Part shown: positions 21,923-27,620 of the stretch, piece after piece
Layout: the number at the start of each line of letters is the position of its first letter
How positions within the stretch are numbered: position 1 is the first letter of the stretch
From: Cyanobacteria bacterium J06626_18
GTDB lineage: Bacteria > Cyanobacteriota > Cyanobacteriia > Phormidesmidales > Phormidesmidaceae
Direction: 5' to 3'
Length of the DNA: 27,620 nt
Assembly (NCBI GenBank): GCA_038523735.1
Contig: JBCBJE010000001.1
Location: forward strand, 1-27,620
The notes under the pieces: generated by a model
The model's input: the letters and a program-made list of their open reading frames with translations, nothing else
Told to the model about the DNA's origin: nothing
The model's database searches: none
Program-made: the position numbers and the translations under genes

Positions 21923-22504
21923 ATGCTTCAGCAGAGGGATGTGTCCGAAGCCGCAACCTACTACAGAGGGGCTAATGTGGAGGTTAGTCCCCATGCGGTT
22001 GTGGCTGCAGGCGTTGTTCTGCAGGCAACAGCGGATAGTCAAGTGGTAGTCGAGGCTGGTGTGTGCATCGGTATGGGGGTTGTCATTCAGGCGTATGGTG
22101 GCAAGCTGATGCTGTCTACTGGAGCCAACATTGGTCAAGGCACGCTGCTGCTAGGTGCAGGCACTATTGGCCCGCAAGCTTGCATCGGTGCGGAGAGTAC
22201 ACTCATCAATCCGACGATCGCAGCCAACCAAGTCATCCCCGCGCGATCGCTCTTGGGCGACAACAGCCGCTCCCTAAAACCCGGTGCCGAGGCAGGCGCA
22301 GAAGGTCCCTCTGATAATGGCAAAGCATCCTCTGTCTCTGAAGCAGCTCCTGAGACAGCGCCAGATATAAACGCAGACTCGAATGGCAATGGTGGCGCGA
22401 TCGCTCCCAACAGCACTGTCTATGGACGCGACCAAGTCCTGAAGCTCGTCCACACCCTATTTCCGCACCGTAATGCGACGATGGCAGATCCAGGCGAGGA
22501 TTGA
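21923..22504 (+). CDS. ccmN: Carboxysome assembly protein CcmN
   Basis: Hexapeptide repeats (GVCIGMGVVIQA, GANIGQGTLL, ACIGAESTLIN), linker, C-terminal encapsulation peptide VYGRDQVLKLVHTLFPH. Confidence 0.9.
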   Translation: MLQQRDVSEAATYYRGANVEVSPHAVVAAGVVLQATADSQVVVEAGVCIGMGVVIQAYGGKLMLSTGANIGQGTLLLGAGTIGPQACIGAESTLINPTIAANQVIPARSLLGDNSRSLKPGAEAGAEGPSDNGKASSVSEAAPETAPDINADSNGNGGAIAPNSTVYGRDQVLKLVHTLFPHRNATMADPGED

Positions 22505-22630
22505 GTTTTGGTCATAAGTTCATAGTTCTTTGTTGATGGTTGATCGTCTACAGGGTCCGAATCGCAGCGCTGAAGACTAACCATCAACTATGAAAGATCA
22601 GCTATTAATCATCAACGAATAACAAATAAC
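22505..22630. repeat. Inverted heptamer-based stem-loop between ccmN and ccmO
   Basis: Left arm TTCATAGTT[CTTTGTT]GATGGTTGATCGTCT (22519-22549) matches the reverse complement of the right arm AGACTAACCATCAACTATGAA (22574-22594). Confidence 0.7.
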
Positions 22631-22703
22631 TACTCCTATCCAATCTCCCGACAAACACTTCTTACAATAGAAAATAGCCGATCGTATTCAGTGAGGCTTC
22701 ACT

Positions 22704-23543
22704 ATGGCTGCAAATGCAAACCTATCCGTTTCCAAACCTTCTCCCTACTCGCAGCGATGGGCTAACAAGCTGCGTGGAGCGGCACTGGGGTTAGTGTCTA
22801 CGCAGAGCTTTCCGGCAGTGGTGGGAACTGCGGATGCCATGCTGAAATCGGCGGACGTGATGCTGATTGGCTACGAAAAAACCGGCTCAGGACAGTGTAC
22901 TGCTGTAGTTCGGGGCGGCGTTGCGGATGTTCGGATGGCAGTTGAAGCGGGCACACAGACAGCCAAGCAGTTTGGTCAGTATCTCTCGTCGTCCCTCATT
23001 CCCCGTCCTTTACCCAATTTGGAAGCGGTGCTACCAATTTGTATCCATCTGGATGCACTGGAGCGCGTGGGTCGGGGTCGTATGGGAAATTACGCGATCG
23101 GTTTACTCGAAACCCGAGGCTTTCCGGCGATGGTGGGAGCTGCAGATGCGATGACGAAGGCGGCAGAAGTCAAAGTAGTCGCTCACCAGTCAATTGGGTC
23201 GGGTTTGTGTACCGTCATCATTCGGGGATCACTGTCAAATGTGGCGATCGCAGTTGAAGCTGGGATGCATGAGGCCGAGCGCATTGGTGAGCTCCACGCG
23301 GTCATGGTCATTCCTCGTCCGCTGGACGAACTTGAGCATTCCCTACCGATGGCAGAAGTCCTGGAAACCGAAGAGCCCCTACGCTTACCGCTGAAGCTGG
23401 AAGAGAAAGAGAAGGAACTGGTCGTTCTGCCCGAAGCCGAAGCCGTTCCAGCCGCGCAAGAAATGGTACTACCCGAAGCCGAAGCTGCCCCGGCTCCCAT
23501 CGTACCTTTACCCGAACCGTTGCGAGAGGGTGAGTTGGACTGA
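22704..23543 (+). CDS. ccmO: Tandem-BMC carboxysome shell protein CcmO
   Basis: Two BMC domains (ALGLVST.SFPAVVGTADAMLKSA; AIGLLETRGFPAMVGAADAM.KAA), last gene of the ccm operon. Confidence 0.93.
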   Translation: MAANANLSVSKPSPYSQRWANKLRGAALGLVSTQSFPAVVGTADAMLKSADVMLIGYEKTGSGQCTAVVRGGVADVRMAVEAGTQTAKQFGQYLSSSLIPRPLPNLEAVLPICIHLDALERVGRGRMGNYAIGLLETRGFPAMVGAADAMTKAAEVKVVAHQSIGSGLCTVIIRGSLSNVAIAVEAGMHEAERIGELHAVMVIPRPLDELEHSLPMAEVLETEEPLRLPLKLEEKEKELVVLPEAEAVPAAQEMVLPEAEAAPAPIVPLPEPLREGELD

Positions 23544-23628
23544 AGAATCAGGGCAGTCAGAGCTCATATGCACAGCCATTCTGATAGATAACTTTGGGAT
23601 GCTGAGCTAAGACCTAATCAAGCCAGAT

Positions 23629-23658
23629 GTTGGGTTTCGTTCCTCAACCACAACCTAC
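23629..23658 (-). repeat. GTAG-type REP-like palindromic element (degenerate)
   Basis: Minus strand reads GTAG-GTTG(T)GGTT-GAGGAACGA-AACCCAAC: a GTAG foot plus an 8-bp stem with one bulged base, enclosed by an outer imperfect IR ACCTAATCAA/TTGATTTGGT (23612-23621/23664-23673). Confidence 0.6.
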
Positions 23659-23743
23659 GTACTTTGATTTGGTTAGGCTATGCATAACAGCAACGCGCCT
23701 AAAGATGTCTCTAACTCCTATTTACAGAAAGAAAGCGTGGACG

Positions 23744-24058
23744 ATGAATACAGAATTTGTTATTCCTGATTGGCTCATTGCTGAAATCGACAGCGCTCCA
23801 CATGATGTTCGACAAAATGCCCTCGTCTATCTGTGTGGCATTCTCTATCAGGCTGGACACACATCAGAGAATATCCTTGCCGAGATACTTGGTGTTAAAC
23901 AGTCTGAACTGCATCAGGTGCTTGCAGAACATAGGTTTATAGGTGGTAAGGCTTCAGAAATTGATTGCCCATCTCTCAGTATTACGACAGTAAGACCAGG
24001 TAGCGGATACGCTGACACCTCGCTGAAACACGACGCGATACTAGCAGGATTTGAATGA
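23744..24058 (+). CDS. UPF0175-like small HTH protein (putative antitoxin)
   Basis: MNTEFVIPDW...LYQAGHTSENILAEILGVKQSELHQVLAEH resembles the UPF0175 pattern as recalled. ATG 23744 preferred because the upstream part of the track ORF runs through the REP hairpin. Confidence 0.5.
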   Translation: MNTEFVIPDWLIAEIDSAPHDVRQNALVYLCGILYQAGHTSENILAEILGVKQSELHQVLAEHRFIGGKASEIDCPSLSITTVRPGSGYADTSLKHDAILAGFE

Positions 24059-24066
24059 GGCAAGTT

Positions 24067-24471
24067 TTAGCTGAGTTGTTGTTTGTGCTGCAAAAACTCG
24101 GCAAACGTCTGGACTTCCTCCAGCAGCGCTTCTGGCATCTCATCCAATAACCGAAACAGATCTATCTTGACTGCATTGGAGCGCTTTAGCAAAACCATCT
24201 GATGCGATCGCACAACCTCAACTCCCAAGGTTTCTCTGAAGGCTCCTAGAGCATCTGCGTCTGCGCGTACCAGCCCTATTGGTTCTTGTAAGGTCACCCA
24301 GTCGCCGAATAGCTCTACTAGAAACACTTGCTCCGGTTCTAAGACCTCCACAATACTGCCAATCGTGCCAGCCGTAGCCGATGTCGATGGCTCCAGTGCG
24401 TTGCCCATATCACCTGTCAAGGTAATTGGCTCAATTAACTGCACCTGATCCAGTAAGTTGAATGCGTTCAC
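24067..24471 (-). CDS. DUF4926-like domain fused to a C-terminal DUF2281-like helix pair
   Basis: NLLDQVQL...AGTIGSIVEV...FLVELF...ETLGVEVV, then LLEEVQTFAEFL. GTG start 24471 overlaps the upstream TGA (GTGA) and follows a GGAGGG RBS. Confidence 0.6.
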   Translation of the reverse strand: MNAFNLLDQVQLIEPITLTGDMGNALEPSTSATAGTIGSIVEVLEPEQVFLVELFGDWVTLQEPIGLVRADADALGAFRETLGVEVVRSHQMVLLKRSNAVKIDLFRLLDEMPEALLEEVQTFAEFLQHKQQLS

Positions 24472-24812
24472 GAATTCCCTCCCGATCTTTCTGGAATCGC
24501 TGTGACGAACCGAGCTACTGTTTCGCCTGAACGGACGATCCATCCTGTTCTGACCCACCAACGGATACCCGAGCTACCCTGAATTTGACTGACCGCCTGA
24601 TAGCGGTCACCATACTGATCTTGCCTTTGAAACGTTAGGTCTGCCAACTTCACTGCATCCAAAATAGCGGATCGAACGGTGTCGGGAGACTCAAAACCCA
24701 ATACCTCGCGCCAGAACTTCTGCTTATCACCCCCTTTCCCTGGGATCGTATCGCGTGTCAATAGATAAACTGCTTTCTCAATAGGAAAGACTAAGGCCGT
24801 TGGTTGAACCAT
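24468..24812 (-). CDS. DUF6883-like protein (putative toxin)
   Basis: EKAVYLL...GGDKQKFW..VLGF...QYGDRY....IQGSSG...VRTGWIV......RFVTAIP matches the recalled DUF6883 pattern; translationally coupled to the DUF4926-like gene. Confidence 0.65.
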   Translation of the reverse strand: MVQPTALVFPIEKAVYLLTRDTIPGKGGDKQKFWREVLGFESPDTVRSAILDAVKLADLTFQRQDQYGDRYQAVSQIQGSSGIRWWVRTGWIVRSGETVARFVTAIPERSGGNS

Positions 24813-24904: not shown

Positions 24905-25855
24905 CTAACGCGAGGTTAACGCACGCTGTACCCACAGTCGCACCATCGTACGGGGATTGCCCGGATCATCAATGTACGCCGTGCGATCGTGGGCCAGACA
25001 GCGATTATTCACCCAGAGCTGGTCGCCTTTCGCCATCCGCAAGCGATGAATATGGCTAGGTTGCTCTAGGGCCTCATCCAGAGCGTCCAGCGCAGCAATT
25101 TGGTGAGGACTCAAAGGCATCTCAGCCCGTCGGTGCCCCGTCTCAATCCAGTAGCGCATGTAGCGAAACATGAATGGACCCGCCGGCTCGAAGATGGGAA
25201 AGGCATTCGCCCGGATACGGCTAAGATCGCGATCGGCACCAGGAGTAACCACATCGCGAATCAAGGGCTGATGCAACAGTTCCAAGGCATCCGGTGCCGT
25301 CCGTACTAAATAGTTACGCACTGTAACCGCACTGCAAAGACGATTCTCACCACCAAATTGCCCTGGCTGCAGACAGAGCAGCGCAATATAGTCCGGTTTA
25401 ACAGCACGTGCTGAGCTATCAGTATGGAAGCCGGTGGATTCCCGTGTCATGCTGACAGGGACCGCTTGCGTTCGGTAGCAAACATCGCGATCTTTCACAT
25501 CGTAGAGCCGCCCATAATTTTCTAAAACCTCTCCTAGTGCCGAGCCCACAGCTAAATACGTCAGTCGCTGTAGCCAACGCGCTTGACCGGCGGCCATGCC
25601 CCGCACTAGGCAAAAGCCAGGACCACGGTCTAAGCGATCGCGAATCGCCTCCGCCAAGGCATGAATTGCTGGCAGTCCTAAAGTCTTGGGTTGCCAAGCT
25701 GCAATGGGATCAGCCTGATCATCGCCCCAACATCGCAGCGTATCGATGTCGAGCGCTACGGCATCAGTAGGACTGAGCTGCCATAACTGGGTTGCAAGAC
25801 TTTGAGCTGTCCAAGCCAGAGGGCTGGAAGCCACAGTAGGTAGTGCACTCACCAT
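24905..25855 (-). CDS. Fe(II)/2-oxoglutarate dioxygenase, TauD/TfdA/clavaminate-synthase family
   Basis: RGPGFCLVRG, facial triad H144-T-D146...H289, PDYIALLC, GGENRLCS, GDQLWVNNRCLAHDR, R.MVRLWV. Confidence 0.88.
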   Translation of the reverse strand: MVSALPTVASSPLAWTAQSLATQLWQLSPTDAVALDIDTLRCWGDDQADPIAAWQPKTLGLPAIHALAEAIRDRLDRGPGFCLVRGMAAGQARWLQRLTYLAVGSALGEVLENYGRLYDVKDRDVCYRTQAVPVSMTRESTGFHTDSSARAVKPDYIALLCLQPGQFGGENRLCSAVTVRNYLVRTAPDALELLHQPLIRDVVTPGADRDLSRIRANAFPIFEPAGPFMFRYMRYWIETGHRRAEMPLSPHQIAALDALDEALEQPSHIHRLRMAKGDQLWVNNRCLAHDRTAYIDDPGNPRTMVRLWVQRALTSR

Positions 25856-25962
25856 ATGAAATTGTTCCGATTACAAAAATGAACAGAAAATCCAACCCGG
25901 GTAGCTCAGGCAAAAAGCAGTCCCGCAGGTTGGCCGATAATCAGGGTTGTTATTGCTGAGCC

Positions 25963-26718
25963 TTAACGCTGCAGCACGAAGAGGATGTGTAGAGGCGTTC
26001 CCGCCAAGGGACCAAAAAAATCAGCATCCAGCTCAATATGTTCTGGCTGCACGGCAAGCTCCTTAATCATGGGGAGCGTTTTCCAGCCCGCAGCGAGCAG
26101 CGCTACAAAGTAGTCTTCTAAGGTTTTGTGGACGCAGCGCACCGGTACATCAATGCCGTCACGCCGCCAAATGCGCCCCTCCAAGGTGCGATCGCGATCA
26201 TCCATATAGACTGCGTCTTCTGGCCGGAAGAAGAACGGCGGCTCTTGCGGGCGGAGCCAGGGCAAGGAGGGATGCGGCACCGTGAACACGAGCTTGCCAC
26301 CCGGCTTGAGGAGACGGTGAGCCTGGGTCAGCACCGTCATCATCTCAGTACGAGTCAGGTAGTTGAACAGAAAAACGGCGACGACCCGGTCATAACTCGC
26401 GTCGGGTAAATCGTCTAGATCCGTTGCGCTGCCCTGTCGCCAGTGCAGTTGGGGATCGGGTGAACCAGCTTTGGCCTTGGCCACCATTGCTTCCGAAAGC
26501 TCGATACCTAATAAGGATGCAGCACCGCGATCGCGAATTTGCCGGGCAACATACCCTTCACCACAGCCTAAATCCAGCACAGTTGTCCCAGCTAGCGGCT
26601 CTAGGGCCTCTAAAGCAAAGGGGCGTGCAGTGAAATCGGACAGTAGGATTTTTTCGGTTCGAACCCATTGGGCTGCGGCGCGATCGTAAATAGCCTGAGT
26701 TGAGACGGAAGCACTCAT
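25963..26718 (-). CDS. Class I SAM-dependent methyltransferase
   Basis: Motif I VLDLGCGEGY, acidic end of beta2 GIELSEAMV, SYDRVVAVFLFNY, LLKPGGKLVF; ATG overlaps the upstream stop (ATGA). Confidence 0.92.
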   Translation of the reverse strand: MSASVSTQAIYDRAAAQWVRTEKILLSDFTARPFALEALEPLAGTTVLDLGCGEGYVARQIRDRGAASLLGIELSEAMVAKAKAGSPDPQLHWRQGSATDLDDLPDASYDRVVAVFLFNYLTRTEMMTVLTQAHRLLKPGGKLVFTVPHPSLPWLRPQEPPFFFRPEDAVYMDDRDRTLEGRIWRRDGIDVPVRCVHKTLEDYFVALLAAGWKTLPMIKELAVQPEHIELDADFFGPLAGTPLHILFVLQR

Positions 26719-27530
26719 GCGGCCATCTCCTCGGGCGCTAGCGCCCGAGTGTACAGCCAGTCCCAGAACGCCACACGCAGCGCCAGTGCTTTGCGCATCC
26801 CTTTCTGCAGATCGCGTAGCCCCTCCGGAGTTTGCGCAAATGTGGCGGCAATTGCCAGCAGTGTTTCCTGATGGGCATCATCGACCAAGGTATGGAGCGA
26901 GAAAAATACCGTATCGCGGGCAGACAAATCTTCTAAATGAGCAAGTGCCTGGACAATCGCCCGATAGCATTCGCTCACAATACTTTCGGTGCCGAGTCCC
27001 AGCGCTCCGATCGCTTCAGCAGCCGAACCATGCGTCAACGTTGCCAAGAACAGTTCGCGCCAGCACACGACCTCCAAGTCGGCCTGTTCCCAATCGCGAT
27101 CAACAACCCCAAGCGCTGTCCGAAAGCGCTGAAACAGCTGGGGATGCGGTATACCCACAATCCAATCCGCTTCGATCCCAAGCCGCGCCAAGGCAGCCAG
27201 GTCATCCTCAGAATAGTTACCCGACTCCTCCATCAGATTCTGAATCAACGCCTCTCGATGCATAGGTGAATCTAGCCGACTAATGGCAGTTGTCAAAAAC
27301 CGAGGGAAATAGGCTGAATAGCCATAGTAATGACGCGCAAAATCAGTTATCGCCCAGCGGAGGTTAGGCAAAGTCCCGGCGGCCAGGGCCGCGAGATAAG
27401 GATGTCGAATCGCCCGATGACAACAAGCCTCGTTAACAAGATCAACCAGGTGCGATCGCACATTCGATAGTTCCGATGTAACGCCTGACCTTCGTCGATG
27501 GAAGTGGGTAGACGTAAACGTAGTCATCAT
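26715..27530 (-). CDS. Heme-oxygenase-like diiron oxidase (TenA/PqqC/CADD superfamily)
   Basis: HPYL, all-helical character, CADD-like ligand set E101/E102, H129, E182, H213-x3-D217-x2-H220 (NLMEES, PHPQLF, GTESIV, LHTLVDDAH). Confidence 0.85.
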   Translation of the reverse strand: MMTTFTSTHFHRRRSGVTSELSNVRSHLVDLVNEACCHRAIRHPYLAALAAGTLPNLRWAITDFARHYYGYSAYFPRFLTTAISRLDSPMHREALIQNLMEESGNYSEDDLAALARLGIEADWIVGIPHPQLFQRFRTALGVVDRDWEQADLEVVCWRELFLATLTHGSAAEAIGALGLGTESIVSECYRAIVQALAHLEDLSARDTVFFSLHTLVDDAHQETLLAIAATFAQTPEGLRDLQKGMRKALALRVAFWDWLYTRALAPEEMAA

Positions 27531-27620
27531 AGTAGAAGCCCCTTGCAGTGACGGTTAGAAGCGAGTTTTTGAGTGCGGCGAGGTCTTTCTTCAGAAGAGC
27601 CTAGTTCCCTAAAAACACTA

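Follow-up and report, generated by a model that had tools for sequence, protein, structure and literature searches.

A three-enzyme cassette centred on a heme-oxygenase-like diiron oxygenase recurs across bacterial phyla and as single-protein fusions

The analysis of a contig from Cyanobacteria bacterium J06626_18, a metagenome-assembled genome (MAG) of 68.65% completeness, reveals a compact enzyme cassette of uncharacterised function. The window analysed here is the whole 27,620-bp contig (G000:C1:1-27620), and close to one end it carries three co-oriented genes, which encode a diiron oxidase/oxygenase of the heme-oxygenase-like type (HDO), a class I S-adenosylmethionine (SAM)-dependent methyltransferase (MT) and a TauD/clavaminate-synthase-like Fe(II)/2-oxoglutarate (2OG) dioxygenase, here called TauD. 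We conclude that this trio is an HDO-centred small-molecule tailoring cassette that is real, widespread and uncharacterised: a translationally coupled operon, inherited and transferred as a block, whose cofactor sites are intact, whose members co-occur across phyla, and whose three activities are found elsewhere in a single polypeptide. Although widespread in this sense, the module is rare and patchy in occurrence.

Co-occurrence was scanned in one genome per species, at 80 loci carrying HDO relatives of 53-83% identity. At 24 of these loci an MT homolog directly follows the HDO gene, and wherever the contig continues (22 of 22) a TauD homolog comes next. The carriers belong to Cyanobacteriota, Planctomycetota, Pseudomonadota (Lysobacteraceae, Arenicellales and one MAG labelled Roseobacteraceae) and UBP10, to which the names on MT and TauD homologs add Myxococcota. 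The same arrangement emerges when one starts from the other two genes: three TauD homologs (P0209, P0237 and P0149; 45-48% identity) and two MT homologs (P0297 and P0305), selected solely by long contig and blind to HDO, all lie within HDO-MT-TauD trios, with flanks that differ each time. Clustering all open reading frames (ORFs) of the 80 loci exposed no recurrent neighbours beyond MT, TauD and a cupin, save for synteny among close relatives, and the order itself varies in a few ways: cupin-HDO-MT-TauD, HDO-cupin-MT-TauD, HDO-MT-TauD-cupin, and an MT-TauD pair with a distant paralog of the HDO after it. An initial annotation of the window, made from its letters alone, had proposed that the three genes act in one pathway and had named a lack of co-occurrence across genomes as grounds for refutation. 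That refutation fails: at least four bacterial phyla have the genes in this order amid unrelated flanks, which, together with the fusions described below, supports a functional unit. Carriage is nevertheless sparse: among 400 further cyanobacterial genomes, sampled evenly, 5 have TauD at E<=1e-30, and a close HDO homolog occurs in only 1 of 40 relatives, a genome of the same genus.

The case for placing the three activities in one pathway rests most strongly on Rosetta-stone fusions. An exhaustive search over 1.8 billion cluster representatives recovered HDO, MT and TauD in that order, with or without a leading EF-hand domain, in single proteins of 805-1254 amino acids (aa) (P0411, P0430, P0435, P0470, P0501 and P0508), and HDO-MT di-fusions are also present. 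One fusion originates from a eukaryote transcriptome in EukProt and is colinear with the HDO (36%), the MT (about 29%, interrupted by an insertion) and the TauD (32% identity) of the window. At L103:17-3124 and L104:1742-4735 fusions are encoded as ORFs that run without interruption for about 3 kb; the neighbours on these contigs look eukaryotic, with ephrin-receptor-like repeats and a reverse transcriptase of the copia type.

In the window, the positions of the three ORFs, their shared orientation and the 107-nt gap are exactly as first annotated (Table 1), and so is the overlap of the MT start with the HDO stop, which reads ATGA at 26718-26715. An AAGGGG stretch lies a short way upstream of the HDO ATG. 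The spacer between MT and TauD is kept in a sister genome (L007), where 121 of 141 aligned columns are invariant. Rfam gave no match anywhere in the window at E<=1, the spacer and the 90-nt upstream region included, and nothing at gathering score in 10 related loci, so that no riboswitch or leader RNA offers a clue to the ligand. Nor did a scan for promoters and terminators find anything that exceeds shuffle expectation; the spacer holds one weak hairpin with a T-run, likewise not above it. As had been remarked from the outset, only 90 nt of upstream sequence is visible, the window being the entire contig. The accompanying suggestion that further genes may lie beyond the edge was not borne out: no conserved gene stands upstream of HDO among the close relatives examined, and the trio is therefore probably complete despite the contig end. 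A homolog of the sister genome's upstream gene was not found in the MAG itself, at its 68.65% completeness.

Table 1. The trio and its adjoining non-coding stretches in the window (nt, nucleotides).
Feature	Positions	Strand	Remarks
HDO (heme-oxygenase-like diiron oxidase/oxygenase), 271 aa	26715-27530	minus	PF14518 Haem_oxygenas_2 E=1.3e-20; first gene
Class I SAM-dependent methyltransferase (MT), 251 aa	25963-26718	minus	Methyltransf_25/11 E~1e-21
TauD/clavaminate-synthase-like Fe(II)/2-oxoglutarate dioxygenase, 316 aa	24905-25855	minus	PF02668 E=2.7e-28
MT-TauD intergenic spacer, 107 nt	25856-25962	minus	
Upstream region, HDO start to contig end, 90 nt	27531-27620	minus	promoter region incomplete

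The cofactor ligands were initially annotated as intact in all three enzymes, and closer analysis agrees. The HDO scores 74.4 bits against PF14518 (cut-off 28.9), and its ligands E102, H129, E182, H213, D217 and H220 make up the three-histidine, three-carboxylate set, are invariant in 20 relatives, and align one-to-one with E81/H88/E142/H174/D178/H181 of CtCADD in a profile alignment; D63, also invariant, may supply a fourth carboxylate. Its AlphaFold2 model (pLDDT 88.9) is all-helical, with the seven helices of the heme-oxygenase fold, and Foldseek matches it to CADD, BesC, UndA, PqqC and HrmI at probability 1.00. CADD (1rcw/8vag) and BesC (7twa) lead the list with TM scores of about 0.85 by target at 18-20% identity, and UndA, PqqC, the Nostoc CADD-like protein 3b5o, HrmI and FlcD rank lower. 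Searches of solved structures with the HDO sequence and its profile return BesC and CADD/PabS, and no SznF chain at E<=1. As modelled, the fold comes closest to BesC and CADD, which are C-C-cleaving or radical enzymes. The subfamily comprises 90 clusters at the 50% identity level (E<=1e-30) and is conserved to an unusual degree, with relatives at 55-65% identity across phyla and several invariant Tyr and Trp. A separate feature of the family is that about 25 extra residues separate ligands E102 and H129 (residues about 103-128; window 27144-27224), an insertion also present in the eukaryotic fusion protein; one BesC helix aligns both to this insertion and to the next helix in a profile alignment, which suggests an internal helix duplication.

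Could the HDO then be a self-sacrificing synthase of the CADD/PabS type, making p-aminobenzoate or another cofactor fragment, with MT and TauD either unrelated or tailoring the fragment? CADD/PabS, the dimetal p-aminobenzoate synthase of Chlamydia and Nitrosomonas, has the same six ligand positions and is the best fold match of all (TM 0.86 by target), and both a weak TIGR04305 match and the very high conservation with invariant Tyr/Trp would fit such a role. We nonetheless consider it highly improbable: the sacrificial Tyr27 of CtCADD aligns, by profile, to an invariant Leu46 and the donor Lys152 to Ile192 (Ile/Phe in the family), the TIGR04305 score is 48.3 against a cut-off of 200, and the existence of HDO, MT and TauD as a single polypeptide favours a small-molecule pathway common to all three.

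Two further assignments of the HDO were rejected. It scores 30.6 bits against the BesC equivalog (4-chloro-allylglycine synthase, NF042919), whose cut-off is 500. HamA, from the fragin pathway, is a poor model as well; the DUF3050 match is weak (E=0.0026), and HamA is a mono-iron, 2OG-dependent enzyme that uses carrier-bound valine. BesC, which is the best HDO profile match among solved structures (E=8.9e-11), acts with BesD/BesE in the terminal-alkyne amino acid pathway of Streptomyces cattleya, where an HDO likewise has Fe/2OG oxygenases as partners and the compound acted on is an amino acid in free form; however, identity is 18-19%, and the trio has a methyltransferase in place of a halogenase, a pyridoxal phosphate enzyme and a ligase. 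HrmJ and BelL are Fe/2OG enzymes that stand beside the HDO N-oxygenases HrmI and BelK, and these pairs, which act on free lysine, resemble the trio in joining an HDO to a Fe/2OG oxygenase. The match to HrmI is weaker (E~7e-5, 16% identity), and the Hrm/Bel pair lacks a methyltransferase and sits inside nonribosomal peptide synthetase (NRPS) clusters.

The other two enzymes likewise fall within known superfamilies. TauD scores 100 bits against PF02668 (cut-off 27) and belongs to the TauD/TfdA family, with its jelly-roll fold; the facial triad of H144-x-D146 and H289 and the 2OG-binding R302 are invariant in 22 relatives. It falls far short of every NCBIfam equivalog cut-off. The nearest structures to its AlphaFold2 model (pLDDT 89.9) are TtnM (7n7v) and FrbJ (5eqn), the phosphonate hydroxylase FrbJ being the best structural match in Swiss-Prot (TM 0.84 by query), and clavaminate synthase (CAS), TmpA, BBOX/TMLH and arginine hydroxylases including VioC are further neighbours. 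The MT carries the Rossmann-type SAM-binding motif I as VLDLGCGEG, as expected of a class I SAM-dependent enzyme, and scores 77.5 bits for Methyltransf_25 and 75.5 for Methyltransf_11. It reaches no equivalog cut-off in NCBIfam (the best is CpaM, 76.3 against 180), and among solved structures it is closest to a Mesorhizobium methyltransferase that is uncharacterised (3bkw) and to the N-methyltransferases ToxA and MitM. Across both oxygenases, many invariant Arg and His residues hint weakly at an anionic group on the substrate.

The neighbours of TauD raise the possibility of onium metabolism, in which the MT would make a quaternary ammonium or sulfonium compound of the betaine, 2-(trimethylammonio)ethylphosphonate (TMAEP) or dimethylsulfoniopropionate (DMSP) type, TauD would hydroxylate it like BBOX, TMLH and TmpA, and the HDO would cleave a C-C or C-X bond or decarboxylate, in the manner of TmpA/TmpB or of the missing 4-dimethylsulfonio-2-hydroxybutyrate (DMSHB) decarboxylase. 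TmpA and gamma-butyrobetaine dioxygenase are the best NCBIfam matches of TauD, and TmpA, BBOX and TMLH are among its top structural neighbours, with FrbJ foremost in Swiss-Prot. The host is marine, fused versions exist in eukaryotes, and UndA demonstrates that oxidative decarboxylation is within reach of HDOs. The DMSHB decarboxylase step is largely unassigned in the DMSP literature (PMC11306096), and the domain shared by the 4-methylthio-2-hydroxybutyrate (MTHB) S-methyltransferases DsyG, DSYE and TpMMT of DMSP synthesis is PF08241 (PMC11306096). Still, we regard this as distinctly unlikely. The similarities are all at superfamily level, TauD scoring far below the TmpA and gamma-butyrobetaine dioxygenase equivalogs (39.5 against 400 and 33.4 against 414.75 bits), both of which we therefore rejected as assignments; freshwater picocyanobacteria, Planctomycetota and Sphingomonadales account for many of the carriers; and the sole known DMSHB decarboxylase, DsyD, is a PF04115 protein, neither an HDO nor a Cupin_2 protein (PMC11306096). 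TmpA/TmpB and PhnY*/PhnZ offer the parallel of a Fe/2OG hydroxylase followed by diiron C-P cleavage, and TmpA is a near relative of TauD, but the scores lie far below the equivalog cut-off, TmpB and PhnZ are HD-domain enzymes rather than HDOs, and those pathways have no methyltransferase.

Within the wider HDO family the commonest partner is not MT or TauD but a Cupin_2 protein of 165-200 aa, directly adjacent and on the same strand at 65 of the 80 loci. Cupin and MT occur together at 11 loci; TauD is present too at 10 of them, and in the eleventh the contig ends first. All four genes occur in Cyanobium strains and, for example, at L016 and L101, whereas Sphingopyxis terrae NBRC 15098 and Novosphingobium aquiterrae have HDO plus cupin. 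In a tree of the HDOs, the cupin-only, trio, and trio-plus-cupin contexts are interleaved and imply at least 3-5 switches; the window belongs to a well-supported clade of four cyanobacterial members, which carry the trio but lack a cupin. A search with a single Leptolyngbyaceae cupin found none in the MAG itself (68.65% complete) or in 2 of the 4 other trio-only genomes searched, and the remaining two gave weak partial matches only (E 3e-5 and 2e-4), elsewhere in the genome. The HDO and the cupin can also be fused, as in the relative P0111, where the cupin is N-terminal. A same-genus genome (G003) encodes a further case at L003:997-2313, a 438-aa HDO-Cupin_2 paralog with the domain order of SznF, whose HDO part is 35% identical to the window HDO and which returned no SznF chain in a search of solved structures.

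These pairings bring to mind streptozotocin, whose N-nitrosourea is built by the methyltransferase SznE and the HDO-cupin enzyme SznF. By analogy, the MT would N-methylate arginine or a similar amine, the HDO would N-hydroxylate it and the cupin, where present, would rearrange it to an NO-releasing (nitric oxide-releasing) N-hydroxy, N-nitroso or diazeniumdiolate product. The HDO-cupin pairing and the fusions at either terminus (P0111, L003) mirror the two catalytic domains of SznF, the MT parallels SznE, and many structural neighbours of TauD (CAS, VioC, OrfP, NapI, CmnC) use arginine-derived substrates. The genes for the NO sensor H-NOX that adjoin some trios and a related cassette, described below, would also be explained by an NO-releasing product. 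Against this, searches of solved structures did not return SznF at E<=1 for the sequence or the profile, nor for the cyanobacterial HDO-cupin fusion, the nearest enzymes being the C-C-cleaving BesC and CADD; the window clade has no cupin at the locus, nor was one found elsewhere in the genomes searched with the single query; and TauD has no counterpart in SznE/SznF. We consider such a pathway unlikely, and the window protein, as a lone HDO domain for which those searches returned no SznF chain, was rejected as a SznF-type N-nitrosating enzyme. The streptozotocin analogy drawn in the initial annotation thus holds as a matter of logic only, HDO plus methyltransferase. Like the onium proposal, it would rest on analogies at superfamily level.

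Signs of regulation recur in lineages other than that of the window. Besides the EF-hands of the fusions, many HDO relatives are fused to an N-terminal cyclic nucleotide monophosphate (cNMP)-binding domain, and two independent trios are divergent from a gene for H-NOX and one for an HNOBA histidine kinase (L008/L013, HDO 65% identical; L098, 48%). H-NOX (PF07700) and HNOBA (PF07701) are among the families retained by symbiosis-competent Nostoc, for which NO sensing was proposed and the trio enzymes are not described (Warshan 2017, PMC5702739). A related cassette in another cyanobacterium (G034; L094:6407-14417) holds a 335-aa protein, an MT 51% identical to that of the window and an HDO 25-27% identical, followed by genes for HNOBA-GAF-PAS-GGDEF-EAL, H-NOX and HNOBA histidine kinase proteins. 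Like the trio, this H-NOX-linked cassette (with CADD-like Npun_F6505, PDB 3b5o) couples an MT to an HDO and a third gene; it differs in gene order, in its distant HDO and in its third protein, which matches no Pfam family and shares no similarity with TauD. A further locus (L099, G287) bridges both cassettes, with MT-TauD followed by an HDO of the distant L094 type.

What might such a cassette do? We think it probable that the trio is a self-contained three-enzyme module that acts on one free small molecule with SAM, 2OG, O2 and iron, in which the HDO is the core and MT-TauD an accessory pair, and whose product is a metabolite of signalling or stress. Precursor genes, ligases and carriers are never found in the flanks, so the module would need only common cofactors and a common metabolite. 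Neither the window nor any of the relatives examined has an NRPS/PKS (PKS, polyketide synthase), ligase or transporter next to the trio, just as the initial annotation had stated for the visible sequence; since the genes come with no exporter, the product would be free and diffusible. A free amino acid as substrate and an osmolyte, chelator or toxin as product, put forward in the initial annotation, would be candidates only. The most likely substrate would be a common and polar compound of primary metabolism, either amino-acid-like or some other acid; TauD would hydroxylate it, the MT would methylate it on a heteroatom, and the HDO would oxidise it through C-C scission or N-oxygenation, giving a small, diffusible compound that leaves without a dedicated exporter. 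MT and TauD may form a sub-module for tailoring either the substrate of the HDO or its product, which in other lineages complements or replaces a Cupin_2 partner; the HDO may also work with a cupin instead of the MT-TauD pair. The recurrence of EF-hand and cNMP-binding domains and of H-NOX neighbours suggests that production is switched by signals, and makes an on-demand signal or stress metabolite more likely than a bulk osmolyte.

A more ambitious extension can be offered only tentatively: that the trio, with its cupin and fused variants, represents an undescribed on-demand pathway in bacteria and eukaryotic microbes, switched by Ca2+, cyclic nucleotides or NO, which yields a new diffusible signal or stress metabolite (e.g. 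an NO-releasing N-oxygenated or new onium compound) through a type of HDO reaction new to the superfamily.

Several observations weigh against the self-contained module and its proposed signal role. At 56 of the 80 loci the HDO stands without MT and TauD, and in the complete genome of a Microbulbifer sp. (L097:7001-8699) an MT-TauD pair, 51% and 36% identical, is preceded by a 0.8-kb gap that contains no HDO; the members of the trio are therefore not strictly interdependent. The closest structural relatives of each enzyme, at 18-24% identity, give no substrate. H-NOX adjacency is a minority pattern, seen in 2 of about 29 independent trios, which counts against the streptozotocin-like route as well, and H-NOX was not found in the MAG at its 68.65% completeness. 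The sequencing runs that carry the locus are marine metagenome DNA, which points to a marine host, and no RNA run is listed among them. We infer the substrate class, the order of steps and the signal role from context only.

The closest relatives of the trio proteins bear Leptolyngbyaceae names, and the contig also has ccm carboxysome genes. These lie at 21923-23543 (plus), convergent with the trio, and comprise a CcmN-like ORF and then a CcmO-like protein with two bacterial microcompartment domains (22704-23543); the synteny of trio and ccm genes is retained in the sister genome, with ccmK/L/M upstream. Between the TauD gene and ccmO lie two overlapping genes that resemble a toxin-antitoxin pair, a DUF6883 gene (24067-24812, minus) and a DUF2281/DUF4926-like gene (23627-24058, plus), and a UPF0175-like ORF is found near them. 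In L007 the DUF6883 homolog is fragmented and the second gene reduced to its first 50 residues, so the pair is decaying there. It is outside the conserved trio module.

How novel is this combination? About a dozen HDOs have been characterised according to a 2026 review, namely UndA, BesC, SznF, CADD/PabS, FlcD/E, AetD, SktA, HrmI/BelK, RohS, PolF and MboA, and none of those it covers has MT and TauD as its partner set (PMC13108848). Full-text literature searches returned no description of an HDO-MT-TauD trio. The first impression that these three genes do not match a described pathway therefore stands, no characterised cluster having been matched in our searches or in that review.

In conclusion, few HDO reactions are known (PMC13108848), and nearly all of them brought new chemistry. 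At about 2.6 kb, or as a single ORF, the trio is a compact and cloneable target for deorphanisation. The EF-hand and cNMP-binding domains and the H-NOX neighbours suggest that its product has a role in the signalling or stress responses of aquatic microbes, bloom-forming picocyanobacteria and microbial eukaryotes among them. Should this product prove to be NO-related or an onium compound, the cassette would bear on sources of NO other than NO synthase, or on missing steps of DMSP and betaine metabolism.

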